Below, piece by piece: positions 1,743-32,974 of a DNA stretch of 64,000 nucleotides. This DNA comes from Candidatus Poribacteria bacterium (GTDB taxonomy: Bacteria > Poribacteria > WGA-4E > WGA-3G). Both the position numbers and the translations under genes were made by a program. Every line of letters starts with the position of its first letter. Positions within the stretch are counted from its first letter, which is position 1. The stretch is taken from assembly GCA_028824685.1 (NCBI GenBank), contig JAPPCZ010000023.1:257-64256 (forward strand), written 5' to 3'. Under the pieces are notes generated by a model. That model did no database searches. It saw only the letters and a list, made by a program, of their open reading frames with translations, and was not told the origin of the DNA.

Positions 1743-2510
1743 TTACTTTTTGGACTTTAGCAAACCCCAAGTAGTGGTTGCTTTTCCTGCTGCCTCAACA
1801 GCAGCATAATCTGCTAAGCCAGTATCCATAACATCGTTGACTTGTACTTCCGTAAGTGCTTTCGTGAAAAAACCAACTTCATCAAAGAGTCCGGTTGCAG
1901 CAACGTTGCCAGGGCGCGCACCTATCCAAATCGGTGATTTACTGGTATCAAGTTTTCCACCACTCGCCTTTTCACCTTCTAATTTACCATCAACAAACAT
2001 CTGAACCTTACTGCCATCATAGACTTTCGCGATATGATGCCATTGACCATCTGCAACGATGGTTTTACCATCAATACGACCAACTTGACCCTTCACATGC
2101 CACATAAATACTGGATAATCGGCATCGTGAATCCATATATCAAGGTGACGGACATTTTCCGGTTCGGGCCAAACATCTCCATTCCGCCAAACGACGTATT
2201 GCCATGAGGCAGCATTCAACTTAACCCAAGAAACAAAGGTATACGGGTCGGAGTTGAAAACGTCATCATGGTCAACACGAACGTAACTATCACCTTTGCC
2301 GGGGAATTCCAACGCACCACCGAATTTGCCATCACCTACCCACTTTAGGTTGCCTTTGATGTCACCATCGTGTCCACTGACAATATCTTTAACTACTTTT
2401 CCACCGTTTTCATTGAATAACCATGCACTTGCTAAACCGAGTTGCGCCGCATGTGCAGTAAAAACTGTTCCGATGATAAGTATTGTCAAACACAAAATAG
2501 TCGTTTTCAT
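1743..2510 (-). CDS. secreted LamG/concanavalin A-like domain protein with C-terminal TTTWG-type tail
   Basis: N-terminal signal peptide (MKTTILCLTILIIGTVFTAHAA). LamG-like signature near the C-terminus (LFDEVGFF). The protein ends ...KATTTWGLLKSKK. Confidence 0.5.
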   Translation of the reverse strand: MKTTILCLTILIIGTVFTAHAAQLGLASAWLFNENGGKVVKDIVSGHDGDIKGNLKWVGDGKFGGALEFPGKGDSYVRVDHDDVFNSDPYTFVSWVKLNAASWQYVVWRNGDVWPEPENVRHLDIWIHDADYPVFMWHVKGQVGRIDGKTIVADGQWHHIAKVYDGSKVQMFVDGKLEGEKASGGKLDTSKSPIWIGARPGNVAATGLFDEVGFFTKALTEVQVNDVMDTGLADYAAVEAAGKATTTWGLLKSKK

Positions 2511-2543
2511 GTTGTTTCCTCCTTTGAGGTTACTAAAACGATT

Positions 2544-3548
2544 TTAGACGCGGCAATTGTCAAGCGCGTCCTCATCTAATTCAACGCCTAATCCTGGTTT
2601 ATCTGGTATAGTCGCATATCCGTCCACAAGCGGAATAGTTGAAGGTGTAACAATGTCAAAGGCACGCAGCGCATTTAAAGTAATTGAAGGCATAGTCGCA
2701 TTCCGCATAACCGCAGCAAGATGCATCACATAAGTGGTCGTTATGCCGAGACCAACAATTTGTATCCACACAGGAAGATGCGCTGAGTCTGAAATTATTG
2801 CTTCACGTTTAGCGTTAGCAGCACGCGAGTCTGGGTAAGCAATAATAAACGAATCGTTCATCTTTGCCCGAATCGCCTCAACAGGATCGGGATTTCCGAA
2901 GTGAATTGTTATTGGCATATCCGTGTGTTGCTTGATTTCTTGGTATCCGGCAATATCCGACTGTGGAATCGGGGTTTCAAACGATTCAATATTGTAGTCT
3001 TGAAGTTGTCGGGCAACTTCAAGGGTGTGTTCTGGTGTTTGAAAAGAATCATTTGCATCCACGCGAAGTTGAAAATCATCTGGCACAACCTCTGCGATTG
3101 CGTCTACCTGTTCACGCACTTCAAACCACGGACGTGCCTTGATTTTATGGAGTCGGTAGCCGAGTGAATATGCATGTTTTGCCTCTGCAGCCCACTCCTC
3201 TGGTGTCATATCAATAGACCAATATCCGAACGATGTTTTGTCGTTAACCTTTTCACCTAAAAGTTGATGTACTGGCACACCAAGGGACTTGCCCATGATG
3301 TCGTAAAAGGCTTGTTGTAGCGGTGTCGGTGCCCATCCATTCATAAATTCAAACGGGTTTCTGCCGATATACCGTTGAACTGCTTCCTCCGATTGAAACG
3401 AACCATCGCCAATGCCGGTTATTCCCGCATCAGTATGCACCTTGTAAACATGGTCAATTTGATAAAGATTACGACGCGTCATCAGTTCGTAAATGCCATC
3501 ATGGTAAGGCACTCTGACCTTGATAACTTCAATTTGCGTAATTTTCAT
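2544..3548 (-). CDS. enolase-superfamily enzyme (mandelate racemase/muconate lactonizing enzyme-like)
   Basis: N-terminal capping-domain pattern MKITQIEVIKV... followed by barrel motifs (KIKARPWFEV, LRVDANDSF metal-ligand motif). Length 334 aa. Confidence 0.6.
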   Translation of the reverse strand: MKITQIEVIKVRVPYHDGIYELMTRRNLYQIDHVYKVHTDAGITGIGDGSFQSEEAVQRYIGRNPFEFMNGWAPTPLQQAFYDIMGKSLGVPVHQLLGEKVNDKTSFGYWSIDMTPEEWAAEAKHAYSLGYRLHKIKARPWFEVREQVDAIAEVVPDDFQLRVDANDSFQTPEHTLEVARQLQDYNIESFETPIPQSDIAGYQEIKQHTDMPITIHFGNPDPVEAIRAKMNDSFIIAYPDSRAANAKREAIISDSAHLPVWIQIVGLGITTTYVMHLAAVMRNATMPSITLNALRAFDIVTPSTIPLVDGYATIPDKPGLGVELDEDALDNCRV

Positions 3549-3629
3549 GATTCTGCCTCCCCGTATCCGAATAACGATCTTCTGTCTACTGCTTGTGGAT
3601 ATAGAATGTTATTTAGCGTTTTTAGATTA

Positions 3630-4082
3630 CTATTCGTCACGCCGAATCCAGCTGACGACATCTTCCGCTTCACCTGTCCCGCCTTCTACGCCATCGCTCC
3701 CAAATGAGATAAGGTCGTACCCGTATCGGTCATGCACACCCGGACGAATGTAAATGTATGGGTTACCCCACGGGTCCTCCGTAATTGGGATTTGAATGTA
3801 TGGAACTAACCAATTTATAGGAAGTGGTGGTTCTTCGGGTTTCTCCCAAAGTGCTTTCAATCCCTGTTCAGTTGAAGGATAATCTCCATTGTCCTTAGCA
3901 TATCTATCAAGAGCGATGCCAAGCGTTTCAATGTCTTCAGCTGCACGTGTTTGTAATGCACGGCCTGCTTGCCCAAGCAATCGCGGTGCCAAAATCACAG
4001 CGGCAATCACACCAAGAACAACAACGACAACTAATATCTGGACAAGTGTTAACCCCGATTGTTTTGAATCAATTTGTATCAC
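3630..4082 (-). CDS. gspG: type II secretion/type IV pilin-like major pseudopilin (GspG-like)
   Basis: Prepilin N-terminal segment G|LTLVQILVVVVVLGVIAAV. GspG-specific core motifs (DIETLGIALDRYAKDNGDYPSTEQGLKAL, DPWGNPYIY, ISFGSDG). Confidence 0.75.
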   Translation of the reverse strand: MIQIDSKQSGLTLVQILVVVVVLGVIAAVILAPRLLGQAGRALQTRAAEDIETLGIALDRYAKDNGDYPSTEQGLKALWEKPEEPPLPINWLVPYIQIPITEDPWGNPYIYIRPGVHDRYGYDLISFGSDGVEGGTGEAEDVVSWIRRDE

Positions 4083-4230
4083 GTATGCGTCTCCGCGCTT
4101 TCTAATAATGAGATAATTTTGAATGTCTGCAAGAGTTTATCACATGTCGCTGATTGTGTCAACTATAACTATTTCATTCTCCAGAGCCATTCAATTCTCC
4201 AATAATCGCACAGGCTACATCTGTTGCTTC

Positions 4231-4297
4231 TTGTAGGAGCGATCTCCGAATCGCGACAAAACACAAGGATAGTCGGGAATCGGAGTTCCCTCCTACA
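4231..4297. repeat. palindromic MITE-like repeat, family 1 (TGTAGGAGCGAYCTCC...GGAGnTCCCTCCTACA)
   Basis: Inverted arms tgtaggagcgatctccgaatcgcgac / gtcgggaatcggagttccctcctaca. Related copies occur at 4395-4422, 33045-33090, 44191-44250 and 46184-46339. Confidence 0.6.
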
Positions 4298-4487
4298 ATA
4301 CAATTAAATGGAAAAACCCGACAATTGAATGGCTCTGTTTCATTCTCAGAGTCATTAATTCTCAAATAATTTCTTTTTTATTTAAAACCTCTTTCTGTAG
4401 GAGCGACCTCCTGGTCGCGACCTTGCCTTAAATATTGAGAAAACGCGAAAACTGAATGACTCTATTTTAATCTCATGATCATTCAGT

Positions 4488-4525: not shown

Positions 4526-4536
4526 CACTAAAAACG

Positions 4537-4791: not shown

Positions 4792-4835
4792 CTGTTTGTC
4801 TCCTTATCTCAATGATTGATTAACAGCATTTGCAT

Positions 4836-6105: not shown

Positions 6106-7101
6106 TTACTGGCTTTTCACGTTTGCCCAAGTGGTTGTCAATTTATCTATATCTGGACTAACATCGTAAACACCTTCAGTATCCAAAGCGATTCCTGCTA
6201 CATAATTCAAACCAGTCAAAATGTCTGTGACATTAGAACCATCAAGGTTTGCACGTCTGATTTTACCCTTGCGATTCTGTGTATCTCTTTCTACCCAGTA
6301 CATTTTGCGGGAATGTAGATCTAAGGCAATATCGCTTGGATAACTCAATTCTTCTAATAGGGTTTCCTTATTATCGCCACCAAGTGATGTCCTTCTAATC
6401 TGGCCCAAGGAGATGTGGGTCCAATACATATCGCGGTTGTGTAAGTCAAGTGCAAGTCCGACGTGATCTATTATACTGAGAACAAGTTCTTCGTAATTAG
6501 AGCCGTCAAAGTTCACATGAGCAATATTATCATTTAAGGAGTCTAAAAAATACATCTTACCCGCCTTCACATCAAGTTGGATTTTCTCAGCATCAACTCT
6601 TGGCCCAAATACGGCACCATCCACAGGCTTAATTATAATGTCCTCAATATTGGAACCGTCATTATTTGCACGCGAAATTCCCCACGGTCCAATCCAATTA
6701 CCCCAATATATTTTATCCGCATTTGTATCTATGGCGATGCAGCCGGGAGAATGTAGACGTTTATTCTGTTCTGCAATCTGTGCTTCACGATTGAAAATTA
6801 CTTCAATATTCGAGCCATCAAGGTTTGACCGGTAGATTTTTGAGGTGTCAAAGTTAAATTTGTTAACCCAGTACATCTTACGGTTGTGTAGGTCCAAGGC
6901 AATATCTCGAGGCCATTTCAATACCGTTAGGATGTCTTCTACATTGGACCCATCAAGATTCGCCCGTCTGATTTTATCTGTTTCTGTCCAATATATTTTG
7001 GCACGTCCTTGCCCGTAACATATACCTTGGACAATAGTAGTCAACAAAATCACAACCGAAATAAATACGATACGCTTTTGTGTTAATACCTGATTTTTCA
7101 T
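6106..7101 (-). CDS. secreted YWTD (LDL-receptor class B-like) β-propeller repeat protein with TTTWA C-terminal tail
   Basis: Repeated ~43-aa units KIYWTE/KMYWVN...RANLDGSN(V/I)E(D/V)I. Signal/TM segment present. Ends KLTTTWANVKSQ. The probable ATG is at 7101. Confidence 0.6.
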   Translation of the reverse strand: MKNQVLTQKRIVFISVVILLTTIVQGICYGQGRAKIYWTETDKIRRANLDGSNVEDILTVLKWPRDIALDLHNRKMYWVNKFNFDTSKIYRSNLDGSNIEVIFNREAQIAEQNKRLHSPGCIAIDTNADKIYWGNWIGPWGISRANNDGSNIEDIIIKPVDGAVFGPRVDAEKIQLDVKAGKMYFLDSLNDNIAHVNFDGSNYEELVLSIIDHVGLALDLHNRDMYWTHISLGQIRRTSLGGDNKETLLEELSYPSDIALDLHSRKMYWVERDTQNRKGKIRRANLDGSNVTDILTGLNYVAGIALDTEGVYDVSPDIDKLTTTWANVKSQ

Positions 7102-7124
7102 GTCAGTACTCCTGCTTGTAAACA

Positions 7125-8120
7125 TTATTGAATTTTCATGTTTGCCCAAGTGGTTGTTAGTTTATTTGTATCAGGGTCTACATCGTAAAACCCTTCGGTG
7201 TCTAAAGCAATACTCGACGAAATATTCAAACCCGTTAGAATACCTCTCACATTGGATCCATCAAGATTTGCGCGTTGGATTTTATACGTAGATGCTTCCC
7301 AATCCCAAACTGTCCAGTATATTTTACGTGAGCGCATGTCTAATTCAATACCACGCGGAAATTTTAATCCCGTAACGATGTCCTTAACATTCCGTCCATT
7401 AAGATTTGAACTTTGTATCTTACCTGTAACTATATTCGACCAGTACATCTGACGCGTTTGTAAATCAAGTGCTAAACCATATACCCCTTGGTTCTTGGTA
7501 ACAAGGTCTTTAGCATCGGATCCATCGAGGTTCGCACTTGCAATTTTTTTGCCGAACACATCAGTCCAGTACAACTTTCTCGCTTTCAAGTCCAATTCTA
7601 TGTTCTGTGCAGAAACAAATTGATGAATTAAGAAATTCTGAGGTAAAATTCGTTCTTTGATAGGAAGACTCTCAACATCGGATCCGTCAAGGTTTGCACG
7701 CTGAATAATATCTCTGCGCCAGTTTCCCCAGTAAATCTTGTTTGATTTGACATCTAAAGCAATGCAGTTTGGCGAAATTGTTAAAGTGTCTTTTTTTACT
7801 ATAACTTCAATATTTGTACCATCAAGGTTTGAACGTTGGATTTTTTCTGCGGTACGGTCAGTCCAGTACATCTTACGGTTTTGAAAATCCAAAGCGATAT
7901 CCACCGGTCCGAACAGTCCCGTTACAAGATCCTCGGCAGCGGTTCCATTAAGGTTCGCTCGTTTGATTTTACCTATATCAGATCTCCAAGCCTCTGCTGT
8001 TTCTGTCCAATATATCTTACCTCTTCCCTGTGCGTTGCTTATGCTTTGGATAACAAAAACGAATAAAACCGCAACTAAAATGAATACGATCCGATTTTGT
8101 GTAAAAACTCGATTTTTCAT
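7125..8120 (-). CDS. secreted YWTD β-propeller repeat protein, tandem paralog of 6106..7101
   Basis: Same repeat architecture (KMYWTD, KLYWTD, KIYWTV). Ends KLTTTWANMKIQ. The 3' nucleotide sequence is nearly identical to its neighbour. Confidence 0.6.
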   Translation of the reverse strand: MKNRVFTQNRIVFILVAVLFVFVIQSISNAQGRGKIYWTETAEAWRSDIGKIKRANLNGTAAEDLVTGLFGPVDIALDFQNRKMYWTDRTAEKIQRSNLDGTNIEVIVKKDTLTISPNCIALDVKSNKIYWGNWRRDIIQRANLDGSDVESLPIKERILPQNFLIHQFVSAQNIELDLKARKLYWTDVFGKKIASANLDGSDAKDLVTKNQGVYGLALDLQTRQMYWSNIVTGKIQSSNLNGRNVKDIVTGLKFPRGIELDMRSRKIYWTVWDWEASTYKIQRANLDGSNVRGILTGLNISSSIALDTEGFYDVDPDTNKLTTTWANMKIQ

Positions 8121-8167: not shown

Positions 8168-10519
8168 TCATTTCCTAATAAGCATTTTGCGTGTAGCGGA
8201 GAAGTCGCCAGCATTGATCGTATAGAGATAAACACCACTACTCACAGATTCACCTTTATCATTACGACCATCCCAGTGAACTGCTTGCGATTGTGAAGAA
8301 TAATCTCCCGCAACCATTATCCCTGGTGATAGAGATCGAACCAACTGACCTGTCGGGGTGTAGATGCGAATGGTTACATCACTTTTGTCCGCAAGTTTAA
8401 ACGGAATCCAAGTTTCCGGATTGAAGGGGTTAGGAAAGTTTTGTAGTAGCTGGTTTTTCTTTATCTGCCCAAGTGTGACAAACTGCTTGCCTTTAGGTTC
8501 AACAGGATAGGGTAGGAATGATAACATGTTATTTAAATCCCATAATTGATACTCTCGCTGTGAATTATGCGTAAGTAATAATGATCCATCTTGACTCATG
8601 TTCAGAAACCATGGCAGAGACGGTTGATTGATTAGTCTACTCCTCTGCCAATCCCAGATTTGGAAGTTTTCATCTCGGTATGCAAATAGATAGCGGTTAT
8701 CAACACTAAATTGTATAGGAAACTCTCCATCCAACGTTGTTAAAAGCAGTGGTTTATCCGGTAAGAGTTTCCAAATATGGATTCCATCTTTACCGTTTCC
8801 TGCTAACACTGTAGAACCGTCTGCGTCGGTCATAAATGCAGGTGATGAAGCAAATGCTCCTTCCCATGCATATTGAAAGACGAAAGTATTTTCCTCGCGT
8901 TTCCACAACAGAATCCAATATTTATGGTTATTATCATCTATTTTTGTTCTTCCCGATGTTACAAAATGTCTATCATTTTCACTGAAACCTATCTGATAGC
9001 TGCTGGATAATCCCACTTCAAATGGTGGGATGAGGCGCTGTTTGTTTTCAGGAAATTCAACGTTCAAGATATCTGTCCTACCCCAATGATCTTTAACTGC
9101 AAGCCATTTTCCAGAAGAACTAAAGGTAATCTTCTCAGGAAGTTGGACGTAATGCGGAAATTGTGTTTCAACTTTACCCGTTTGAATGTCACGTATTTCA
9201 ACAAAAGGTTCTTTACCGACTGCGAATTTTTGACTGTCAGGAGAGATAGTGACCGTGTTAAATTTATAGTCTCCTGCTGAAACAAGTAGCCGCATCTGTT
9301 GAGAAGCAACATCCCACGATTTAATAAAGTGTGAAGATATGGCAATTACAGTTTTACCGTCAGGGCTTAACGCAACACTTTTATTATCAGTAGGCCACCA
9401 AGGCCACCAAGCAGCGATGAAATCTGTCCACATCCGGTGTATCCGTTTATTTTCAATGTCCCACATGATTTCGCCATCCGTATATAATAAAAGTGCCTTT
9501 TTACCGTCGGGTGAAATTGTTATAGTTTGTAAACCTTTGAATTCTGTCTCAAACATATCAATCTGTTGTCCTGAATTGACATCCCACACGCGTACTCTCT
9601 CATCCCAACCTACCCATGGATTAGGACCAGTCATACTTATGCTACCTGTTCTTGATGCGACATACAGTCGTTGGCTGTCCGGACTGAATGTCACCATTGT
9701 AACGCTTCCGATTGCGCTTTTCGCCTTCCATAATAAGTGTTGTGCCTTCGTGTGCCACACATAAACAAAACCTGCTATCCTATCAAAGGACGCGATATAT
9801 TTTCCATCAGGACTGATAACCACACCGTTAACCCAGTTTCCGATATGTCCTTCAAGGTGACCTTCTAATTGTAGTCTTTCAACATTCCACAATTCAATAT
9901 CTGGCCGCATTGAGGCGACAATGAGATAGCGACCATCCGGGCTAAAAACCGATGCAAAATCACGAATAGGACTTCGACAAGTCCTCCAACGACCGTTGAC
10001 GTAGTAACATGTGTCCGCGGGTCGACGATCTCCTATCATCGTTCCAATGAACTCACCGGTTTGCCAATTCCAAAGATGAATCTCATCGTCAACAGAGATA
10101 GCAAGCAATGGTTGGATAGGGCTAAATGCTGCGACATCGTTATCGCCTTCAATTTCCCACGTGGCTATCCGTTCAAGGGCATTAACATCCCAAATTTCGA
10201 CTTTAGTTTTCTGTGGATGTCCAAACGAATTAAAAATTGCAAGATGTGTACCATCTGGACTAAACACAACATCGCTGTAATATGTCAGATTGCCAAATTT
10301 ATCCATGACCTCACCTGTATTGGCATCAACAACCTGAATGTGTGATGGGACAACGCGCAGGATTGTCCCGTTGTCAAGGTAGGCATGTTGTTTTGGTAGA
10401 GGCTGTCCAATCTTAGCAATGGGTTCAATTGCAGACGAAATGTAAGGCATGCAGACGATGCAAATCATTGCTATATAAACTTGCAAGTATTGTCTAAATT
10501 GGATGGTAAAGGTTGTCAT
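8168..10519 (-). CDS. secreted WD40/β-propeller repeat protein with T9SS-type (Por_Secre_tail-like) C-terminal domain
   Basis: Many FSPDG/ISPDG/WDV WD40-like blades. The C-terminal ~85 aa (FPNPFNPETWIPFKL...IRIYTPTGQLVRSL...WDGRNDKGESVSSGVYLYTINAGDFSATRKMLIRK) match the T9SS C-terminal sorting domain consensus. Confidence 0.6.
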   Translation of the reverse strand: MTTFTIQFRQYLQVYIAMICIVCMPYISSAIEPIAKIGQPLPKQHAYLDNGTILRVVPSHIQVVDANTGEVMDKFGNLTYYSDVVFSPDGTHLAIFNSFGHPQKTKVEIWDVNALERIATWEIEGDNDVAAFSPIQPLLAISVDDEIHLWNWQTGEFIGTMIGDRRPADTCYYVNGRWRTCRSPIRDFASVFSPDGRYLIVASMRPDIELWNVERLQLEGHLEGHIGNWVNGVVISPDGKYIASFDRIAGFVYVWHTKAQHLLWKAKSAIGSVTMVTFSPDSQRLYVASRTGSISMTGPNPWVGWDERVRVWDVNSGQQIDMFETEFKGLQTITISPDGKKALLLYTDGEIMWDIENKRIHRMWTDFIAAWWPWWPTDNKSVALSPDGKTVIAISSHFIKSWDVASQQMRLLVSAGDYKFNTVTISPDSQKFAVGKEPFVEIRDIQTGKVETQFPHYVQLPEKITFSSSGKWLAVKDHWGRTDILNVEFPENKQRLIPPFEVGLSSSYQIGFSENDRHFVTSGRTKIDDNNHKYWILLWKREENTFVFQYAWEGAFASSPAFMTDADGSTVLAGNGKDGIHIWKLLPDKPLLLTTLDGEFPIQFSVDNRYLFAYRDENFQIWDWQRSRLINQPSLPWFLNMSQDGSLLLTHNSQREYQLWDLNNMLSFLPYPVEPKGKQFVTLGQIKKNQLLQNFPNPFNPETWIPFKLADKSDVTIRIYTPTGQLVRSLSPGIMVAGDYSSQSQAVHWDGRNDKGESVSSGVYLYTINAGDFSATRKMLIRK

Positions 10520-13600: not shown

Positions 13601-13984
13601 GTGATCACCAATAGCAAACTCTGTATACCTACCGAGAAAAGTTTCTTCAACCAAGATGGCACGGTCCAATTGAGTTGTGAAGCGAAGAGTATCAAGCTGA
13701 CCTGACCAGCCAACAACTAATTTACCATTCTTATCAAATTCTTTTCGATCAGTGTATGTGTTAAGTTCGTTGCCTTCCAGAATCTCTTTTCCGTAAAGGT
13801 CATGAAAGAATTGCGGTTCTTCTTCTAATTGGAATCTATCTGAGAATTTGGCTTCACTCTCAATGATAGGTAAGAGGGGTTCATGCGGTCCGAGACTATC
13901 CGCACCACAGCCATAGAAAACCGATGTACTAAGGATGCAAGTCGCTACAAGGAGAGAATAAATCGCTCGTTTTAACTTCTTCAT
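10619..13984 (-). CDS. large secreted/outer-membrane protein with Asp-rich calcium-binding (thrombospondin-type-3/dockerin-like) loops; C-terminal Phe
   Basis: 1121 aa. Signal peptide with Cys (VFYGCG). Asp-rich segment DDDDGDGWPDDIDFDG...NGVLDYQEDFLIFDVD. Ends ...AMMGF, an OM β-barrel-like terminal aromatic. Paralogous segment in 29337..31289. Confidence 0.4.
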   Translation of the reverse strand: MKKLKRAIYSLLVATCILSTSVFYGCGADSLGPHEPLLPIIESEAKFSDRFQLEEEPQFFHDLYGKEILEGNELNTYTDRKEFDKNGKLVVGWSGQLDTLRFTTQLDRAILVEETFLGRYTEFAIGDHLRFKPDTLFPNRYILYKTEFDGLRWDISFAQEHHLFSLIHSRISNPMRLEESPGGTQRLAGELGRRSGLNALSGVRNIEDARLVGFRGQGLLGENFRVGFTYVNMHKVHPERLINSLMGTVANTPPEKISIVFRDDSPEDNHTRAFTDFDAYNPDEHSGNIQDGVGAAFKSMKITVVTQELEELIPEDIEEGIEPDHLPEQTHHFEVYADQLVPVNHAGGQSQIRDSVDGKWKIVNGFNKMKYDLVLTDDKINIDPRTVKSVVFEMVVAGDYNIAVIGFSRANQATSNPELQEWIKTEDGHIQMPYRDIIQAPGNYGQSPDYTQNREKLIDNPSEWKGEGRPRKVRYRYGAARAATLYGIDLEGTVGNVRVRAQYSINGKYKQYPTVPKDKVGFSRTQTTVKTRGGEESTGVSIDRRSGLPVDANGIPTYSETEGERFEGFLGGDGTDVGDNGKLGRETAWFVQLESRFEKLHLEGVLYHIDPGYTTNYLNFGAHANRGQLFMLERVRPVQQDPLDELPSWDAINYTLIEDDDDGDGWPDDIDFDGVLPRADDRDQNGVLDYQEDFLIFDVDPPMFTNPIDLNNNGTIDSIEDDFEPQYEYGIDRQGYHLKARYDLLDNLAIQVGWLNESEISSRRKNNSKYIHVTYERDIPDFGSFNFQNRFVRVQDDIPDYTITLPVGELEVMQINDELDFFNVRSNTTTLQCLYTAISNLTLEAKCLVVMQKQFEQNVEKALFTDVEYDPVSENFEPDERVDFMVPIEQVRISGERREHPFYPDHGINALDPSDTGLIYDAANWKTRRYPERNIRNQLTILKASYEIPLEVLPFVNKIPFANKFSDDLVLTPMVKYVWDLAFDRTADEIPKTLNPDLFLPTDDQTVEYLRFNRRSREDILGVRLDYRFTQRTKVLGGFQYREFINRDKNFKNYLRNFAADVNVPNLYRPDLRTRIFEIQAINKGERLGFHIVILAGYRRTTHLFQHTTSNITYVRAMMGF

Positions 13985-17601: not shown

Positions 17602-17631
17602 TCTGTTGGCAAGGAATTACCAGAGCACCGT

Positions 17632-18021
17632 TTATTCGTATTTATTTGTAAACGTGTAAAACTGAATCGTATCAATGTGGCCTTTTCCAACTATAGAACG
17701 TTGTGAAATCTTGACAGCATCTGTCTCAGCAGAAAGTAAAATCTCAAAAGGAAACTCAATTGCCTTTGTTATACGGGTGACTGGTTTCCATTGATTTTTT
17801 TCATCACGGACAGCAATATCAAAATTTTTAATTCTTCCTTTCCCGATAAGCACAATTTTTCGAACTTGTGAACTTTTCGGCATATAATAAATACTACCAG
17901 TGTTTATTATCTTTTCTGAGACTTTTTCATCTATCAATCTATACTCTTGCTCTGTTAAAAGTGCAGCGCAGCCCGTGAGTACGAAACAGATCAAAAGTAG
18001 GTATTTCAATCGAATCATCAT
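17632..18021 (-). CDS. small lipoprotein, tandem paralog of 17179..17601
   Basis: Lipobox VLTGCAALL and the same conserved blocks as its neighbour. Confidence 0.45.
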   Translation of the reverse strand: MMIRLKYLLLICFVLTGCAALLTEQEYRLIDEKVSEKIINTGSIYYMPKSSQVRKIVLIGKGRIKNFDIAVRDEKNQWKPVTRITKAIEFPFEILLSAETDAVKISQRSIVGKGHIDTIQFYTFTNKYE

Positions 18022-24800: not shown

Positions 24801-27800
24801 ATGATTAAGATATTAGATGAAAGCGATCCTCTCTTAACGGCTTACAAACCGTTGTACACACCTCTGACTCCAATAGTCCGTATCCTATTATTGCTATCTC
24901 TCCTACTGATTATCGGGTGCGGTCCATTAGGCATAACTGACCCACAATCCGATTCGCCCCACGCCGATTCCCGCTCAAATTCAAAACCCACAAAAACGTG
25001 GCCCATCAAACGCACACTTATCAGCAACGAAGTCAACTGTATTGCTGCCGATTCAGAGAATGTATGGATTGCAACAGCGAAAGGTGTCTCACGTTGGCTA
25101 CGCAGTGAAAACAGATGGCTTCACTATACGATGGAAAACGGATTAGCAAATGATATGGTCAACGCTGTTGCGGTTGATGGTAAATGGGTTTGGTTCGCTA
25201 CAGATGAAGGTGTGAGTCGATACGACAGCGAAACCGATGCCTTTTCAACCTTCCGTGACATTGACGGACTCGCAAGCGATCAGGTTTCCTCCATCGCTGT
25301 GGATGGCATCTACGTCTGGTTCGGAACATCTAACGGGCTGAACCGTTATGACAAAACAATTGATAGCTGGGCAGTCCGCACACGCAAAGATGGGTTAGTT
25401 AGCAGAATAATTACAACAATCGCAGTTGAGCCTGAGTATGTCTGGGTCGGCACTGATAGAGAAATTAACCCTGATCCGCATGGATGGGATGAAGATCCGA
25501 GATTCAGCAGAGGCGGTGTCAGCCGTTATCACCGAGACACAGATTCTTGGAACAACTATACAAGATCGGATGGCTTAATAGACAACGAAATTGCCACAAT
25601 TGCCGTAGATGACGACAGTGTTTGGTTTGGCACACAACATAGAGGCGTTAGTCAATACAATCAGGTTGACCAAACATTCGTGAAAACGTTCACCAAAACC
25701 GATCTGTTAAAAAGTAATTTCATCTCCTCAATCCGCTCTGACGGGTTTCAGGTTTGGTTTGGGACCGCCAATGCAGGCGTGCATCGTTTTATCAAACCTG
25801 TTAACACTTGGGTGCATTATACCAAAGCAGACGGATTGGCGAGTAATAATGTGAGTTGGATTACGACACAAGGCAATGATGTTTGGTTTGCAAGCAAAGA
25901 AGATGGCGTGAGCCGCTTTGATAAGGTTAGCGGTGAATGGACAATCTATAAACAAGCCGATTTTCTGGCGGATAACGATGTTCGGGATATAGCACGTGAT
26001 GCTGATGGAAACCTCTGGATAGCAACAGTCGCTGGTGTCTCTGTTTACAATCCCCAAACACGTAATTGGGAGGTGTTCTCTAAAGAAGATGGACTGCCAA
26101 CCCCTTATGTCATGTCAGTAGATGTAGCGTCCCAATCATCTGAATCTGACCTGAGCAAATTGAGCAAAATACCAAAAGGACAAATATGGATCGGCACAGC
26201 ACGAGGACTCGGTTCATGCACACATCTTGGTGGACAGTGGACATTTCACGGTCCCGCTCAAGGGGAAGCGTTTGTTACCGCTGTTGCCACTGGCAAGGTT
26301 TCAGATAATCCCAGTGACACAGGACAAATTTGGCTTGGAACGAATTTGGGCCCCGCGATGTATGACACAGACTCTCAGAAATGGACGCAACTTTCATTCT
26401 CAGAATCACCTCAAAATCCACTGATATTGTCTGTTCTTATCCATGATGGATATGTTTGGTTCGGCGGTGTAAAAGGCGTTTGGCGATATTCAGTTGCGGA
26501 TAAAAAGATGCATCGGGTTACCAAAGGACTTAAAAATCCTTACGTTAACGTGCTGCTTTCCGTAGACAATGTGGTTTGGGCAGGGACACAAGGAGGGCTC
26601 GCAAAATATGACAGTAAACAGCAGCGGTGGATACCTATTTCCTTAGTAACTAAATCGAAAGAAAAATCCCCTCCAAGTATTACAGCCCTCGCTTACCGAG
26701 AAGGTGTGCTTTGGATCGGCACACCGCAGGGATTAGGAAGTTACACGATTGCAACTGAAAAATGGAATTCCCTCAAAAAACCCTACAACATTCGTGACAT
26801 TGTGTGTGATCAAGATAAGAGGCTTTGGTTAGCAACATCTACCGGTCTCATTGAACATCACCTTCAGAATGGTGAAGAGATAACACACCAATCCCGTCCC
26901 GTCCGCGAGCCTTTAGTTGAAACGCGCGTTTCACAAATCAAATTTGATGGAGATTACATCTGGTTTTCTAACTGGGGAGCATCAAGAAATGGCGGAATTT
27001 TACGGTTTCACCGTCCAACAAAAACGTGGCAGCGTTTCACCCGATTGGATATTTTCCAGTCTACTCAGAAAAAAACGATGACAGTGTTGCGTTGGACTTA
27101 TGTAGATAAAGATGCCGTTTGGTTCACCACAGATTTTGGTGTACTTCGCTATGATAAAGCAAAAGATACCTGGCAACATTTTACGATGAAGGATGGACTT
27201 TCTGTAGACGATGTGGACAAGATTGCTGTCAGTGAAAAGAGTGTATGGATTGCCCCGATGATGGGTATGGAATTGAACCGTTACGATAAGGCATCAGGAA
27301 CGTGGGAGATTATCACGCAACCTGAAAGGCAAGAACATAGGGAAAGCTTAAGAGGATTTGCTGTTGATGGACCGGAGGTATGGTTCGGTTCAGGAGATGC
27401 ACTCACGCTTTACAATGATGATACGAAGGAGTGGAAGGAATATAGACCGAGAGATGGTTTAGCAGGCAGGGGTGCCGAATGGATTACAATAGACAAGGAT
27501 TTCGTCTGGGTTGCGCGATCCGAATGGGATAGAGGTAGCAACCGTCCCTTGTCACGATATGACAAAAAGACAAAGAAATGGGCAACATTCTCTACCAATG
27601 ACGTGCTTGCTGCAAAAACCATTAAGCGCATCATCGCAACAGAAAACGATGTTTGGATACAATACAGACCTTGGGACAATGCAGTTACTCGATACGATAG
27701 ACTCAACAAGGAGTGGACAACAATCACATCTGATCGTGGCACTCTTGAACTTGCCGCTGACAAAGACTATCTCTGGTTAGCCGCACCCAATGATGGACTT

Positions 27801-29003
27801 CGACGCTTTCATTTCGCTTCCGGCACCTGGACTTCGTTTAAAAATATTAAAGGGCTGTTGCATAACCATGTCGGTGAATATGCACTTGCTGTCGATGAAG
27901 ACTATGTATGGGTTGGAACAATCCGTGGCCTTTCCCGCTATGACAAAAAAAAGGAATCCTGGATGCCTCTTGCACCTTTGCCAACGCTTTCAGGACGTAC
28001 CGTCCGTACAGTAGATACAGATGAACGTTTCGTGTGGGTAGGCACAGATAGCGGATTATCTCGTTATGATAAAGATTTAGGCACATGGAAAAACTATAGG
28101 CAGACGGGCGGATCCGAGGAAATAGCAACACACAACGGACACTGGCACCGTCATAGACCTAAATCACGAGGCATGCTCTCCGATAACGCCGTCAGTTCTA
28201 TAGTCGTTGATGATCAATACGTTTGGGTAGGCACTCGAGATGGCGCGAATCGGTTTGATAAAATCGCACTTAGATGGGACCAATACAAAACCGAACATGG
28301 ATTACCCGCAAACAGTGTGACATCTGTAAGCACTGATGGCAACAACATCTGGGTCGGCACACATTCTGGGATAGGAAAATATCCACGAACCGCTGATGAC
28401 CTCAATGCCTGGATTGCTTATACTTCTGGCACTGAAATTCAACCTTCTGCCGTGTCCAAAGAGTTCGCTGAATCATTGGTTACTGATGAAATCTGGTGTA
28501 TCACGGCAAGCAAAAAACATGTCTGGGTTGGCACACGCCGAGGCGTAAGTAAATACGATATTGGTAGAGACATTTGGAAGACAATCACAGCGGAGGACGG
28601 TCTCGCAAGTGATGAAGTCAGTTGTATCGCCGTTGATGGAGACCGCATCTGGTTTGGCAGTGATCGTGGCGTGACATTTTACAATGAAGGAACTGAAGAG
28701 TGGCGTGCCTATACGACTAAAGAAGGTCTCGCAAGCGACAAGATTACGACTATCGGCGTGGATGGGACTGATGTATGGATCGGCACTTACAACGCAGGGA
28801 TTAGTCGGTACGACCAACTGAAAAATAACTGGACAACTTACACAAGGGAAGATGGTTTAGCGCATAATGGCATACTTTCTATGGCTATCGGTAATACGTA
28901 CGTCTGGTTCGGCACTTATCGAGGATTAAGTCGTTATGATAAACGTACAGGAATCTGGACAACCTTTACAGAGGCTTATGGACCAGAAGATATTTTGAGA
29001 TAG
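24801..29003 (+). CDS. giant lipoprotein composed of ~24 two-component-regulator-propeller (Reg_prop-like) repeats; no kinase or other output domain
   Basis: Lipobox LLIIGC. Repeating ~45-aa units (VW(F/I)GT..G(V/L)SRYD....W..YT..DGLAS(D/N).V.SIAVDG). Confidence 0.5.
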   Translation: MIKILDESDPLLTAYKPLYTPLTPIVRILLLLSLLLIIGCGPLGITDPQSDSPHADSRSNSKPTKTWPIKRTLISNEVNCIAADSENVWIATAKGVSRWLRSENRWLHYTMENGLANDMVNAVAVDGKWVWFATDEGVSRYDSETDAFSTFRDIDGLASDQVSSIAVDGIYVWFGTSNGLNRYDKTIDSWAVRTRKDGLVSRIITTIAVEPEYVWVGTDREINPDPHGWDEDPRFSRGGVSRYHRDTDSWNNYTRSDGLIDNEIATIAVDDDSVWFGTQHRGVSQYNQVDQTFVKTFTKTDLLKSNFISSIRSDGFQVWFGTANAGVHRFIKPVNTWVHYTKADGLASNNVSWITTQGNDVWFASKEDGVSRFDKVSGEWTIYKQADFLADNDVRDIARDADGNLWIATVAGVSVYNPQTRNWEVFSKEDGLPTPYVMSVDVASQSSESDLSKLSKIPKGQIWIGTARGLGSCTHLGGQWTFHGPAQGEAFVTAVATGKVSDNPSDTGQIWLGTNLGPAMYDTDSQKWTQLSFSESPQNPLILSVLIHDGYVWFGGVKGVWRYSVADKKMHRVTKGLKNPYVNVLLSVDNVVWAGTQGGLAKYDSKQQRWIPISLVTKSKEKSPPSITALAYREGVLWIGTPQGLGSYTIATEKWNSLKKPYNIRDIVCDQDKRLWLATSTGLIEHHLQNGEEITHQSRPVREPLVETRVSQIKFDGDYIWFSNWGASRNGGILRFHRPTKTWQRFTRLDIFQSTQKKTMTVLRWTYVDKDAVWFTTDFGVLRYDKAKDTWQHFTMKDGLSVDDVDKIAVSEKSVWIAPMMGMELNRYDKASGTWEIITQPERQEHRESLRGFAVDGPEVWFGSGDALTLYNDDTKEWKEYRPRDGLAGRGAEWITIDKDFVWVARSEWDRGSNRPLSRYDKKTKKWATFSTNDVLAAKTIKRIIATENDVWIQYRPWDNAVTRYDRLNKEWTTITSDRGTLELAADKDYLWLAAPNDGLRRFHFASGTWTSFKNIKGLLHNHVGEYALAVDEDYVWVGTIRGLSRYDKKKESWMPLAPLPTLSGRTVRTVDTDERFVWVGTDSGLSRYDKDLGTWKNYRQTGGSEEIATHNGHWHRHRPKSRGMLSDNAVSSIVVDDQYVWVGTRDGANRFDKIALRWDQYKTEHGLPANSVTSVSTDGNNIWVGTHSGIGKYPRTADDLNAWIAYTSGTEIQPSAVSKEFAESLVTDEIWCITASKKHVWVGTRRGVSKYDIGRDIWKTITAEDGLASDEVSCIAVDGDRIWFGSDRGVTFYNEGTEEWRAYTTKEGLASDKITTIGVDGTDVWIGTYNAGISRYDQLKNNWTTYTREDGLAHNGILSMAIGNTYVWFGTYRGLSRYDKRTGIWTTFTEAYGPEDILR

Positions 29004-29336: not shown

Positions 29337-31289
29337 ATGGACATAAAAACAGGCACCCGAAAATGTCTTCTCTGGTGCTTTTTTCTATTATCGTTAAACT
29401 TCTCCTCTATGTTCCACGCTGAAGCAGAAGATGTATACAGTCTGTTCGGCAAATTGTTCCTGTCTGGGCGCGTCGAATACGACTTCACAAACAGACGTAA
29501 CTTCCTTGCAGATACAGAGGAAGAACGAGTCAGACAAGACAATTTTGATTTTGACCGCCTCTTTCGGCGTGGCTTCCATAGTGTTTTGGTGATTGAGGAG
29601 ACCGCTGGTAGCGTGAAAAATATCTTGAGTCTTGGTGAAGTGCCAACGACTTTTACAAATTTCACCTTTGATCAGATTGACCTAAACGGCGTCCGTTGGG
29701 AGGTGCGTTCCAACTACACCGATTGGACTATCCTAATGGTACCAGGCACGCTCAATCGACTGAACGGTCAAGAAAGCAACATGGAAGGATCAGGTATCGG
29801 GTTACGCGAAGTTACAAAATTCGGTAAATCGCAGTTAGGACTCTCTTGGTATTTCCGTGAAACACCTGTTTGGGCGGTTGATATGGAAACCAATTTCGCC
29901 AATTATGGATTGAAGGCAGAGGTAGCGGTAACACCAAAAAACGCATTACAGAAAAACTTGCGTTCACGTTTCGACGCAACGACAACCGTGTTCAAAGCAT
30001 TCAGAACCCTTGGAGACACGCTCTTTCAAGCGGAGGCGTTTCGCATCGGTCCACGATTTGATGCCTCCCGCTCTGTCGGCGACAACGATGACCAGGACAG
30101 ATATTCCGATAATACATTTCCTGACCCACCTTCCCTGATTATTCCCGGTGACTTAGATAAAAACAATAACGGTATTTTCGACTACGAGGATGATATTCTG
30201 CTGTTTGATGTTGATGAGGATTTCCTTGATGAAACTGACCGAAACAACAACGGCATACGTGACGAAGAAGAAAACGATCAGGATCCAAATTACGAATTTG
30301 ATGTAGGATTGGAAGGTGTACGGCTTTTCATGAACCAAACAATGAGTCGTGAAAAGAGTGTCATTGACCTGGACCTTGGACTACAAATTGAGAAAAACCT
30401 AAAATTTCGAAATATCCCCACCTCCAGAAAAGCGTTCGTCAACATGATTTACAAGAAACAATTGCCTCGCGCTTCCTCACTTGTTTTTGAAAATGAACTT
30501 AAATTAGTAAAGGACAATATCCCTGACGAAACGTGGTATTATGCAGGATTTTTGGGCAGACAAGATGAAAGAATCTATCGGGCACAACCGGAAACACAAG
30601 AGATGGTGGAGGAAGGAGATCTGCAGTTTTTCTATGTTGATGGCGGAGTTGAAGTCGAAAAACGCCGCCCAGACCCCTTGCTAATGCAGAACGATCTGAT
30701 TAACACTGCCAAAATTACATGGGAATATCACGGTATAGACCGTATGATCACAACGGCTCGTGCCAAGCTGCAATACGATATAGATTTTGACGGTGATAAT
30801 GAACACTACGAAGTCGGCATTTTCAAAACCCTCTACCGACTACGACCTTCCAAGTCGTTGGAAATCAGTCCAATGTTTAAATACACTGTCCGGAACGGTT
30901 TCCGTATGGCAGAAGACCGGTTTGAATACCTAAAACTACAGGGAAGAGTTGACGATAGGGACATTTCACGCGATATCAGATTGCGTCAAATTGAACAAGC
31001 ACATGTGCGTGATATGACTCCGGCGCTTATTCTCAAGGTCGTGTATCAGTTCACAAAAACAATTAAACTCACCGGTGGTGGGCAAATTCTGCTGTTCAAT
31101 GATCTGCTGAAGGATGATAATGATTTCGTCCGCCAAGCTCTATTAGCAGAAATGGAAAAGAGTTTTTTCGCTTATCGAAAGCAGCTTTTTCTACATATCG
31201 GAGCGCGATACATAGACCAGCGAGCGATTGGGGATGTTAACGATCAAAACTTCATGGAAATTTTTGTGCGGGTCTTTGGAAAATTCTAA
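29337..31289 (+). CDS. secreted/outer-membrane protein with Asp-rich calcium-binding loops, paralog of 10619..13984; C-terminal Phe
   Basis: Signal peptide present. Asp-rich segment DLDKNNNGIFDYEDDILLFDVDEDFLDETDRNNNGIRDEEENDQD is homologous to the Asp-rich segment of 10619..13984. Ends ...RVFGKF. Confidence 0.4.
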   Translation: MDIKTGTRKCLLWCFFLLSLNFSSMFHAEAEDVYSLFGKLFLSGRVEYDFTNRRNFLADTEEERVRQDNFDFDRLFRRGFHSVLVIEETAGSVKNILSLGEVPTTFTNFTFDQIDLNGVRWEVRSNYTDWTILMVPGTLNRLNGQESNMEGSGIGLREVTKFGKSQLGLSWYFRETPVWAVDMETNFANYGLKAEVAVTPKNALQKNLRSRFDATTTVFKAFRTLGDTLFQAEAFRIGPRFDASRSVGDNDDQDRYSDNTFPDPPSLIIPGDLDKNNNGIFDYEDDILLFDVDEDFLDETDRNNNGIRDEEENDQDPNYEFDVGLEGVRLFMNQTMSREKSVIDLDLGLQIEKNLKFRNIPTSRKAFVNMIYKKQLPRASSLVFENELKLVKDNIPDETWYYAGFLGRQDERIYRAQPETQEMVEEGDLQFFYVDGGVEVEKRRPDPLLMQNDLINTAKITWEYHGIDRMITTARAKLQYDIDFDGDNEHYEVGIFKTLYRLRPSKSLEISPMFKYTVRNGFRMAEDRFEYLKLQGRVDDRDISRDIRLRQIEQAHVRDMTPALILKVVYQFTKTIKLTGGGQILLFNDLLKDDNDFVRQALLAEMEKSFFAYRKQLFLHIGARYIDQRAIGDVNDQNFMEIFVRVFGKF

Positions 31290-31658: not shown

Positions 31659-31674
31659 TAGTTTAAGTTTCCTT

Positions 31675-31859
31675 TATTGTAAACCTGCTTGTCTAAGAAT
31701 GGAATTTAATGTACGAGGGTGAATATCTTTACCCATTTTGCCCGGAACTGTTACTTTGCCTGATTTTGTTGGGTGTTTAAAATGTCTGTGACTGCCTTTC
31801 GTTCGGTGAGAAACCAACCATCATCTTTAAGTAATTTGATGATTCCTCTAACTTTCATT
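31675..31859 (-). pseudogene. hicA: hicA toxin gene disrupted by a 1-nt frameshift (or sequencing error)
   Basis: Reading the minus strand from the ATG at 31859 gives MKVRGIIKLLKDDGWFLTERK, then a frame shift into GSHRHFKHPTKSGKVTVPGKMGKDIHPRTLNSILRQAGLQ*. Together these cover the full HicA consensus. The break is at an aaagg homopolymer. Confidence 0.6.
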
Positions 31860-32025
31860 GTTGATGTACGAGTTTAACGACTACCGCAGAGGTAATATTA
31901 GAATTTTACTTGAGATATTAAACCACAAAAATTACCAAAAGTCAAAAAATGTCTAAATGAAAATCAATAAGCTGCTTACTACATTTGAAATTTCTGTAAA
32001 ATTACGCATATTTTCGAAAATTAAC

Positions 32026-32054
32026 TTGATATATAGAGTAAATGATACTATTAT
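32026..32054 (+). promoter_or_regulatory. putative sigma70-like promoter (TTGATA-17-TATTAT) upstream of the LamG-tail gene
   Basis: TTGATA at 32026-32031, a 17-nt spacer, then TATTAT. Followed by AATGATACT...CACGTGAGC, a motif also found at 33103-33147. Confidence 0.3.
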
Positions 32055-32197
32055 TCACGTGAGCTTGGAAAAAGATTTAGGGTTCTTATAAAATTTGTAG
32101 AAGGGTTATGCTCAGCTCAACGAATCAAATTCAGTTTGTTCAATCAACAGAGCAACGGCAACATCTGCCGTTGCTGGAACAAGAAAAGGAGTCTAAA

Positions 32198-32974
32198 ATG
32201 TATTATAAAATGTTAGTCATAGCATTTGCTGTTATAGCAACCGTTTTCATGTGTGGAAACATAGCGAAAGCTCAAGTGGTTACGAAAGGTTTAGTTAGCT
32301 ACTGGACCTTTGATAAGGCTGATGTAGATGGTGATACTGTTGAAGACGTTTTTGGTAAACATAATGGCACCATGAAAGGAGACCCCAAAGTAGTTGAAGG
32401 TAAGGTCGGTCAGGCTCTGGAGTTTGATGGTGATGATTATGTGGATTTCGGAGATACCGAGAGCTTGAATATAGATCCGCCACTTACAGTTTCAATGTAC
32501 ATAAATAACAAGGATGCGTCCGCCAGTTTTATATGGCAGGGCGGTGAAAAGAGTGGATCGACTAAGAACTATATTTATGTGAGGGGTGATGGCGGGATGA
32601 ACGTTGGTCAATGGCCTCCTGGCGGTGGAGATCTGAATTCTCCCAAGGGGCTTCTTGAAACGCGGGGTGAATGGTATTACATCACTGCTGTTTTTGATGA
32701 CAAATATCTTCTTTATGTTGATGGATCTTTAGAGGGTGAACTCAAAGCGGAAGTTTATTCAGGTCCGACCCCTACAGCTTGGTTACTTGGAACAAGGCTA
32801 TTCCCTGCTAATGCTGCTTATTACTTCATAGGTCTCGTTGATGAACTTGGTGTTTATGATCGAGCACTAAGCGAAGACGAAATCAACCAGAACATGAATG
32901 CAGGAGGATGGGCTGCTGTCCAACCTGTTAATAAGTTAGCACTCACTTGGGGTGATCTAAAAGCCTCAAGATAA
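32198..32974 (+). CDS. secreted LamG/concanavalin A-like domain protein with C-terminal TWG tail
   Basis: RBS AAGGAG upstream of the ATG at 32198 (MYYKMLVIAFAVIATVFMCGNIAKAQ signal). LamG signature YYFIGLVDELGVYDRAL. Ends KLALTWGDLKASR. Confidence 0.55.
   Translation: MYYKMLVIAFAVIATVFMCGNIAKAQVVTKGLVSYWTFDKADVDGDTVEDVFGKHNGTMKGDPKVVEGKVGQALEFDGDDYVDFGDTESLNIDPPLTVSMYINNKDASASFIWQGGEKSGSTKNYIYVRGDGGMNVGQWPPGGGDLNSPKGLLETRGEWYYITAVFDDKYLLYVDGSLEGELKAEVYSGPTPTAWLLGTRLFPANAAYYFIGLVDELGVYDRALSEDEINQNMNAGGWAAVQPVNKLALTWGDLKASR

Follow-up and report, generated by a model that had tools for sequence, protein, structure and literature searches.

A short C-terminal module of exported poribacterial proteins, found alone or ahead of type IX sorting domains, is probably a new part of a sorting or anchoring signal

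The DNA studied here is a stretch of 64,000 nucleotides from a Candidatus Poribacteria bacterium (assembly GCA_028824685.1, contig JAPPCZ010000023.1, positions 257 to 64,256), which we call the window. It encodes seven secreted proteins whose last residues form a common short tail, first noticed in a sequence-only reading that proposed it as a new C-terminal sorting or processing tag. The seven open reading frames (ORFs) and their endings were confirmed from the sequence (Table 1), and Pfam bore out the three folds claimed for them: Laminin_G_3 (LamG) in four (1743-2510, 15531-16385, 16382-17182 and 32198-32974), Ldl_recept_b (YWTD) in two and PD40 in one. Their tails follow K-x-[TA]-x-T-W-[GA]-x-Φ-K plus 1-3 residues, with Ser for Trp in 15531-16385. 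When the window was translated in all six frames, [KR].[TA].[TS][WS][GA]..K, the strict motif, occurred seven times, in each case at the end of a long ORF with 1-3 residues left before the stop codon, and nowhere else; a degenerate DNA pattern gave seven matches, against a mean of 0.00 and a maximum of 0 in 100 dinucleotide-preserving shuffles. An eighth gene, 8168..10519, carries a degenerate form of the same element ahead of a type IX secretion system (T9SS) type-A C-terminal domain (CTD); proteins built in this way are called composites below, and those that end in the tail itself are called tail-only.

The tail-bearing proteins of the window had been described as at least seven unrelated ones. 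This description held at the level of the three folds, but the two YWTD genes (6106 and 7125) and two of the LamG genes (15531 and 16382) are recent tandem paralogues, so that the window contains only about four to five independent tail lineages. Synonymous codons differ among the non-paralogous copies, as had been claimed, which places the conservation at the protein level, and the 3' flanking DNA of these copies showed no relatedness. The Ser of the 15531-16385 tail (15537-15566, minus strand) is encoded by TCG, a single-base change from the TGG (Trp) of all other copies, and this copy may be a decaying or functionally diverged paralogue. The protein encoded at 16382-17182 was also found exactly, with gene order kept, on two ENA metagenome contigs.

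Table 1. Tail-bearing genes and other features of the window
Feature	Position	Strand	Remarks
LamG secreted protein, tail-only	1743..2510	-	tail module and stub at 1746-1805, …AAVEAAGKATTTWGLLKSKK, stop
YWTD (Ldl_recept_b) β-propeller secreted protein, tail-only	6106..7101	-	tail at 6109-6165, …YDVSPDIDKLTTTWANVKSQ, stop
YWTD β-propeller paralogue, tail-only	7125..8120	-	tail at 7128-7184, …YDVDPDTNKLTTTWANMKIQ, stop
WD40/PD40 protein, composite C-terminus	8168..10519	-	degenerate module VEPKGKQFVTLGQIK at 8459-8503, 3 residues, then T9SS type-A CTD at 8171-8449
PD40 β-propeller secreted protein, tail-only	14596..15534	-	tail at 14599-14652, …LAIEPTGKLTITWAKLKR, stop
LamG secreted protein, tail-only, Trp to Ser (TCG)	15531..16385	-	tail at 15534-15587, …MPVEAQSKLTTTSGKLKK, stop
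LamG paralogue, tail-only	16382..17182	-	tail at 16385-16438, …MPVEAQGKLTMTWGKLKK, stop
LamG secreted protein, tail-only	32198..32974	+	tail at 32912-32971, …AAVQPVNKLALTWGDLKASR, stop
Tail-less member of a family without Pfam hit that has tail-bearing paralogues elsewhere	44447..45265	+	control for tail modularity
Paralogue of 44447..45265	46801..47661		also without tail
Outer-membrane-protein-like paralogue	10619..13984	-	1121 aa, ends in Phe
Outer-membrane-protein-like paralogue	29337..31289	+	650 aa, ends in Phe
Apparent operon	14596..18021	-	4-nt overlaps except between the two lipoprotein genes
Small lipoprotein-like paralogues	17632..18021, 17179..17601	-	LxGC lipobox
Protein with many Reg_prop (two-component regulator propeller) repeats	24801..29003	+	1400 aa, no CTD
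BlaI-like repressor, then BlaR1/M56-type membrane sensor	33413..37567	+	sensor of 1250 aa
DNA methyltransferase module	49946..52126	-	N6/N4 DNA methyltransferase (PF01555) at 50532-51461, between two ORFs without family hit
AIM24-family gene	52453..53181		adjoins the methyltransferase module
Five tandem two-gene cassettes, A-type plus B-type	55246..63543	-
A-type genes, about 256-263 aa	56059..56844, 57667..58437, 59192..59971, 60759..61535, 62752..63543	-	all end …DE(S/A)C
B-type genes, 222-385 aa	55246..56043, 56845..57651, 58439..59176, 59973..60641, 61537..62694	-	all end …NAF(Q/H/K)A-x-(I/L)-(S/T)-(V/I)-(E/V)-E-(N/H), extended by a few residues in some

The tail is far from being a peculiarity of the window. 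A scan of one genome per species (185,579 species) with K-[LVIMF]-T-T-T-W-[GA]-x-[LVIMF]-K, back-translated to a DNA pattern of about 35 bits, returned at least 120 loci from at least 87 assemblies, and the hosts fall into at least 28 unlinked families, so the tail extends well beyond the paralogues of the window. Among the 120 loci listed, 110 were labelled as Poribacteria (Candidatus or uncultured), and their sources were sponges, corals, the deep ocean and hot springs. The others comprised seven loci in unnamed metagenome-assembled genomes (MAGs) and one each labelled Planctomycetota, Pseudomonadota and Synechococcus; the Pseudomonadota-labelled locus came from a sponge sample shared with a Poribacteria bin. 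The position of the motif was strict: among 136 matches listed, 134 lay 1-6 residues before a stop codon, one lay at 8 and one at 45, the last being that of Synechococcus, evidently a chance hit. The ORFs of 70 aa or more in the listed loci and the window add up to 441,485 residues; in these a relaxed motif occurred 160 times within 9 residues of an ORF end and never at an internal position. The first relatives to bear a taxonomic name were Poribacteria. A profile search with the last 45 residues returned only 9 short fragments, which yielded no more than a first Poribacteria label, and this search seems biased to query length. Judging from these matches, the tail is lineage-restricted.

Locus L080 (MAG SRP200020_co5_420; positions 363-7993 of the locus) has a GC content of 64.6%, compared with a median of 47.6%, and encodes two Kelch proteins with the canonical tail KLTTTWGAMK. 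Five PD40/TolB-like proteins of this locus end in a variant, (M/V/T)-W-G-W-L-K followed by Q-L-x-x-G-x-R-x-x or A-T-G-R (in full for the first form, …R-x-x-(M/V/T)-W-G-W-L-K-Q-L-x-x-G-x-R-x-x), which suggests that lineage-specific versions of the same tag exist outside typical Poribacteria. A core W-G-x-Φ-K with lineage-specific flanks may be missed by the strict pattern, and the true distribution of the tail is probably wider than the sampled set.

Comparison of the matches showed that the core had been recognised correctly in the sequence-only reading, but that the element is longer, with seven further conserved positions upstream. The full module comprises about 17 residues, Φ-[ASP]-V-[EDS]-[PA]-x-[GD]-K-L-T-T-T-W-[GA]-x-Φ-K. 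In the core, the logos carry a bias from the search pattern; the sets of orthologues and the upstream positions, on which the pattern made no demand, are free of it, and upstream we found Φ (L/T/F), [ASP], V (96%), [EDS], [PA] (90%), x and [GD]. After the Lys of the module the tail-only proteins carry 1-8 residues, mostly polar or basic and most often three, with R, K, Q or N as the usual last residue; none of 156 ends at the Lys itself.

The tail persisted among homologues of its hosts. All 120 listed orthologues of the LamG protein 1743-2510 bear a variant of it, and across them it is at least as conserved as the domain core; in an alignment of 69 of these sequences (52-95% identity, plus one window paralogue at 32%) the Trp and the last Lys are invariant. 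Near-consensus tails, again at least as conserved as the domain core, were likewise kept in homologues of the PD40 protein 14596..15534 that are just 31-41% identical to it. An exhaustive HMMER search with this PD40 protein found the tail limited to close full-length homologues, with no tail in the 144 generic PD40/WD40 hits and no alternative C-termini seen for the family. The degenerate codon positions of the tail displayed a full mix of synonymous codons throughout. From these comparisons we conclude that the tail is under purifying selection.

Once their tails were removed, the host proteins of the listed loci formed 28 clusters unlinked by BLAST. Their Pfam domains include LamG, CBM9, CBM4_9, F5/8 type C, a weak PA14, HmuY and the propellers PD40, Kelch and YWTD, along with DUF4960, a 3-keto-disaccharide-hydrolase (DUF1080-type) domain and a reprolysin-like metalloprotease with ankyrin repeats; several clusters had no Pfam hit and some consist of giant multidomain proteins of 970-1680 aa. 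The occurrence of the tail on secreted proteins, claimed for the window, extends to the whole sample, as an N-terminal hydrophobic segment resembling a signal peptide was present in 136 of 140 complete tail proteins, compared with 186 of 503 other ORFs of the same loci. A lipobox was found in four of the 140. None of them has a C-terminal transmembrane or hydrophobic segment (in the last 45 residues the Kyte-Doolittle maximum of any 15-mer was 1.58, with a mean of 0.66), which agrees with the earlier statement that the tail lacks the hydrophobic helix and basic tail of PEP-CTERM and LPXTG substrates.

The giant tail-only proteins belong to the Poribacteria loci L094, L019, L033 and L106. In those of L094 and L019 the tail is preceded by a conserved segment of about 100 aa (…LxxFRPxRD…VVIxWxTxSELNNAGFxIxRS…YYYQIEDVSLDG…), for which no Pfam hit was obtained at E≤0.01 with the L094 sequence; it may be an uncharacterised immunoglobulin-like domain.

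The family of the tail-less protein 44447-45265 offered a control for modularity. By BLAST, it has tail-bearing homologues in loci L057 and L030 and a tail-less one in L057, and its window paralogue 46801-47661 also lacks the tail; in the L057 and L030 paralogues the tail is an extension of about 20 residues past the end of homology. These observations bear on the explanation that the similarity reflects a shared DNA element (a repeat, a terminator or a mobile sequence) or the last β-strand of one family, to which we assign a negligible probability. Tail DNA is indeed nearly identical within the two paralogue pairs of the window, as this explanation would have it; nevertheless, the codon variation and the unrelated downstream DNA of the other copies ruled out a DNA repeat or terminator, and the 28 unlinked host clusters, together with the presence or absence of the tail within one family, argue against the shared descent of a single strand. 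The AlphaFold model of the window LamG protein 1743-2510 (mean predicted local distance difference test, pLDDT, 89.4) pointed in the same direction: the β-sandwich is confident to about residue 230, whereas the tail (residues 232-253) is a low-confidence appendage with pLDDT of about 66 and forms no strand of the sandwich. This model and the variety of hosts ruled out a conserved strand of the LamG fold. Together, the results support a C-terminal tag that is modular, acts at the level of protein and is carried by exported proteins whose folds are unrelated.

The sequence-only reading had set the tail apart from the T9SS CTD of the neighbouring protein 8168..10519. This separation did not survive the analysis, because the same module, in a degenerate form, immediately precedes that CTD. 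TIGR04183 and PF18962 match the protein at residues 695-781, and just upstream of the TIGR04183 match stands PVEPKGKQFVTLGQIKKNQ, followed by LLQNFPNPFNPETW, which aligns with the tail consensus AVEPxGKLTTTWGxIKxxx; the degenerate module was recognised through an alignment with 59 homologues. We then used as a composite probe the CTD region of the window protein with the degenerate segment swapped for the tail consensus. It returned 2132 proteins. Of the 120 listed, 101 extended 22 residues or more upstream of the CTD, and in 48 of these 101 the module stood directly before LLQNYPNPF, as in P0156 (GIEPDGKVTSTWGRLKENKLYQNYPNPF) and P0167 (AVDPAGKHATTWGKLKRTAVFQNYPNPF). The listed matches include several T9SS type-A sorting-domain proteins named as poribacterial. 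In 40 of 40, a spacer of exactly three residues separated the Lys from LLQNYP.

Metagenome contigs were scanned independently, at the DNA level, with the pattern W-G-x-Φ-K-x3-L-x-Q-N-[YF]-P-N-P-F-N-P, which gave 110 loci with 114 composites. The positions upstream of this pattern, left free by it, again followed the module: [AS], V (85%), [ENTQD], P (73%), x, [GDN], K (90%), x-x-x and T (83%), and in 96 of the 114 the Trp lay exactly 101 residues from the C-terminus. Passengers of the composites include NHL, WD40, FG-GAP/VCBS and esterase-like proteins. Both architectures occur on the same DNA, in the window and on metagenomic contigs (for example L158 and L218, with four tail-only genes each), and the tail-only proteins stop where the CTD would start. 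If the module is defined as VEPxGK-LTTTWGxΦK in a protein with an N-terminal signal peptide, placed either no more than about 10 residues from the C-terminus or exactly 3 residues ahead of a type-A CTD, it includes the seven window genes, 8168-10519 as a degenerate composite, 160 further ORFs and the 114 composites. The module is coupled to T9SS type-A CTDs both physically and in evolution.

The coupling raised the question of whether the module is a mere linker, or an N-terminal extension that aids folding or presentation of the CTD, the tail-only genes being functionless leftovers of CTD loss. Tail-only proteins do end exactly at the CTD junction, and one window copy has lost its Trp, as might be expected of leftovers. 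On the other hand, none of 166 tail-only genes had CTD-like coding remnants within 360 nt downstream, which ruled out recent truncation of CTD genes, and the clustering of 134 of 136 listed ends inside a six-residue window is not expected from random truncation. The conservation of the tail in the listed LamG orthologues and in distant PD40 homologues, and its well-mixed synonymous codons, are also at odds with loss of function. In the AlphaFold2 (AF2) model of the module and CTD of 8168..10519, the CTD forms a sandwich with pLDDT above 90, and its fold has counterparts in the CTDs of PorU, PorZ, RemZ and NucA. At pLDDT from below 50 to 74, the module lies outside this sandwich, so the model does not support an integral strand of the CTD sandwich. 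We consider this explanation largely refuted by the present data and very improbable.

Compared with known C-terminal signals, the tail proved distinct from each. It had no match to Pfam (2025) or NCBIfam (release 20) models, within proteins or as isolated peptides (E≤10), and literature searches with motif strings, or with Poribacteria combined with sorting or T9SS terms, returned nothing relevant to it; in these collections it matches no known sorting signal, as originally proposed. It resembles T9SS type-A CTDs in standing at the C-terminus of Sec-exported cargo of many families and similar types (propellers, lectin-like modules and proteases) and in adjoining such CTDs, across the three-residue spacer, in the same organisms, including in 8168..10519. 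It differs in that a CTD is a 7-stranded β-sandwich of 70-100 residues, whereas the tail has about 17-22 residues, low AF2 confidence and no sandwich, lies outside the TIGR04183/PF18962 boundaries and lacks any CTD motif; only 8168-10519, and none of the seven tail-only proteins, matched PF18962 or TIGR04183. Our searches turned up no conserved pre-CTD junction motif, and we know of none in characterised Bacteroidota T9SS cargo.

With substrates of sortases (LPXTG) and PorU-type enzymes the tail shares a short motif near the C-terminus followed by a dispensable segment, and the poribacterial CTD, or the stub of 1-8 residues that is never absent, could be a leaving group; unlike LPXTG substrates, it lacks LPXTG and is not followed by a hydrophobic helix and basic tail. 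In Porphyromonas, the sites cut by PorU are not known to share a strongly conserved sequence. Like the PEP-CTERM/exosortase, GlyGly-CTERM, MYXO-CTERM and PGF-CTERM tags, the tail is a lineage-restricted short sequence on many unrelated secreted proteins, and its upstream V-E-P loosely resembles (V)PEP; those tags, however, all have a transmembrane helix followed by a basic cluster, and a sortase embedded in the membrane processes them, whereas the tail has no hydrophobic segment and matched no TIGR, Pfam or NCBIfam CTERM model. The β-signal of outer-membrane proteins is also a short, aromatic-containing C-terminal motif on Sec-exported proteins of diderm bacteria, but it forms the final strand of a β-barrel, with an aromatic residue (Phe, Tyr or Trp) at its end, whereas the tail follows soluble LamG, propeller or carbohydrate-binding domains and ends in 1-8 variable polar or basic residues. 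The tail belongs among the C-terminal sorting signals of diderm bacteria, in association with T9SS, and is not categorically new; it is probably a new part of a sorting or anchoring signal.

In many proteins of Poribacteria and of metagenomes, a canonical module with its Trp stands three residues ahead of a type-A CTD, and the tail is best regarded as this junction module of a C-terminal unit of T9SS type, employed alone. We lean, if only slightly, towards the view that it is a linear motif at the passenger/CTD junction that also serves as a stand-alone tag, and that it is bound by a trans-acting envelope factor of the machinery that handles CTD cargo. The analysis shows the motif itself, its modular use at a strictly C-terminal position, export signals on its hosts, purifying selection, restriction to one lineage, a fixed distance from the CTD and the lack of a confident structure in both AF2 models; binding by a partner, the identity of this partner and the final location of the proteins are what we infer. 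The module would mark the boundary between a Sec-exported passenger and the C-terminal sorting apparatus. In composites (passenger, module, three residues, type-A CTD) it would stand where T9SS cargo is normally cleaved from the CTD, and in tail-only proteins (passenger, module, 1 to 8 residues, stop) the C-terminus would resemble the mature end expected after CTD cleavage. After Sec export, a trans-acting envelope factor would bind the flexible module, the likeliest candidate being the processing and anchoring machinery of CTD cargo, that is, a PorU-like sortase/attachment complex or a receptor for mature C-termini, and the bound factor would then retain, anchor or process the protein. PorU is a sortase that links T9SS cargo to anionic lipopolysaccharide. 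In a transpeptidase variant of the mechanism, the leaving group would be the CTD in composites and the short stub in tail-only proteins; that the Lys is always followed by at least one residue would agree with cleavage or transpeptidation involving a leaving group, although it is not proof of it. A dedicated protease, transpeptidase or anchor for the tail is possible.

A stronger proposal, which we put forward tentatively and regard as rather doubtful, is that this peptide of about 17 residues, devoid of a transmembrane segment, is the actual recognition element for a sortase-like transpeptidase or for a docking receptor of the surface or outer membrane. The CTD would then be only an export handle and leaving group, and the 1-8-residue stub would be the leaving group of tail-only proteins.

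Several observations weigh against a factor drawn from the CTD-cargo machinery. A T9SS-type pathway in Poribacteria is unproven: the Por structural genes were not found in poribacterial single-cell genomes (Kamke et al. 2014, PMC3909097), and the window contains no recognisable sortase or T9SS core component (SprA/Sov, PorV, PorU and GldKLMN). The families that recur beside tail genes in about 120 loci (Gfo/Idh/MocA, PhyH, FG-GAP/VCBS, TPR, SDR, FGE-sulfatase, and A2M with PBP1C) are all generic, abundant poribacterial ones and include no candidate reader; no sortase or PorU homologue was identified among them or in the window. By the known rules of T9SS there is no export without the CTD of about 80 aa (PMC10994853), and because of this tail-only proteins may never meet a surface-located PorU-type enzyme. 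In the samples compared, tail-only and composite proteins have hardly any passenger families in common, which would be compatible with two separate pathways, and the residues after the Lys differ ([SRTA]-x-[R] in tail-only proteins vs [RQK]-T-x in composites). Finally, low AF2 confidence is no demonstration that the module binds a partner.

Some of these points would suit an autonomous sorting or anchoring tag with a dedicated reader, independent of T9SS, for which the position before CTDs would be a separable second use. The strictly C-terminal and modular nature of the tail, the near absence of passenger families common to both architectures, the reported lack of Por structural genes (PMC3909097) and the two uncharacterised outer-membrane-protein-like (OMP-like) paralogues that flank tail genes in the window are all in its favour. 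So is the consensus of the tail, which is tighter in tail-only proteins (K-L-T-T-T-W) than in composites (K-x-x-x-T-W, with W/L/F in some lineages), a comparison confounded by the fact that a DNA pattern chose the tail-only set and that orthologues of the window protein account for many of the composites. The two sets also differ in how conserved the Trp is, but this was put aside as evidence, both samples being biased. The fixed three-residue spacing and the fixed distance of the Trp from the C-terminus argue instead for a functional unit with the CTD, and no dedicated gene recurs beside tail genes, the OMP-like genes being found only in orthologous loci of close relatives. We judge an autonomous tag, the main rival explanation, to be somewhat unlikely.

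The tighter stand-alone consensus would also be expected if the tail supplied all the binding energy as a minimal signal for export across the outer membrane, through the translocon of CTD cargo or another one, and the cargo (lectin-like modules, propellers, HmuY and a metalloprotease) does resemble surface or secreted proteins. We nonetheless hold such a role to be improbable. To our knowledge, no export signal of 17 residues without a transmembrane segment acts across the outer membrane, and the difference in tightness is subject to the sampling effect described above. T9SS is known, moreover, to recognise its cargo by shape, namely that of a folded β-sandwich of 7 strands that sits in the cavity of SprA/PorV (PMC10994853).

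Candidate machinery was also sought among the genes of the window. The two OMP-like paralogues each adjoin tail genes and have in common an Asp-rich region of DxDxDG-type repeats (33% identity over about 150 aa); neither has a sequence match in Pfam, NCBIfam or the PDB, and an orthologue follows a tail gene in locus L079, such recurrence being confined to orthologous loci. In the apparent operon on the minus strand, the two small lipoprotein-like paralogues, which also lack Pfam, NCBIfam and PDB matches, come first; two LamG genes and the PD40 gene, all with tails, follow. In L053 the lipoprotein is again found with the LamG orthologue, a recurrence likewise limited to orthologous loci. Given the lack of family matches and this limited recurrence, neither the OMP-like paralogues nor the small lipoproteins were retained as machinery. 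The 1400-aa Reg_prop protein was rejected as a PorZ orthologue, since it scored 87.6 bits with the PorZ model, below the cutoff of 260, and its likeness is through the Reg_prop repeats only.

Other features of the window concern different subjects. The five tandem cassettes constitute an uncharacterised, expanding gene-pair family; no Pfam hit was obtained for the five members scanned, and the A- and B-type proteins have no obvious N-terminal signal peptide. The extracytoplasmic part of the BlaR1/M56-type sensor contains three internal repeats of about 300 aa, an unusual architecture. The methyltransferase module is probably a restriction-modification module.

Poribacteria are uncultivated, dominant symbionts of sponges, and their lectin-like and eukaryote-like repeat proteins (LamG, YWTD, Kelch, WD40/PD40 and ankyrin) are the leading candidates for host contact. 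A common tag defines which of these repeat proteins are handled together and provides a simple sequence rule for prediction across the phylum; the module merits its own hidden Markov model in annotation pipelines, and it would offer a short targeting or anchoring peptide if its reader were identified. Since the motif lies at a fixed distance from the CTD and also occurs free of it, it is a concrete candidate, open to mutation, for the ill-defined step that leads from CTD cleavage to attachment at the surface, and it raises the question of T9SS-type cargo handling in a phylum where the machinery has not been found. If the tail were indeed the recognition element, it would be the first sequence-specific junction signal for the attachment of T9SS-type cargo, and would reveal a CTD-independent route to the same anchor.

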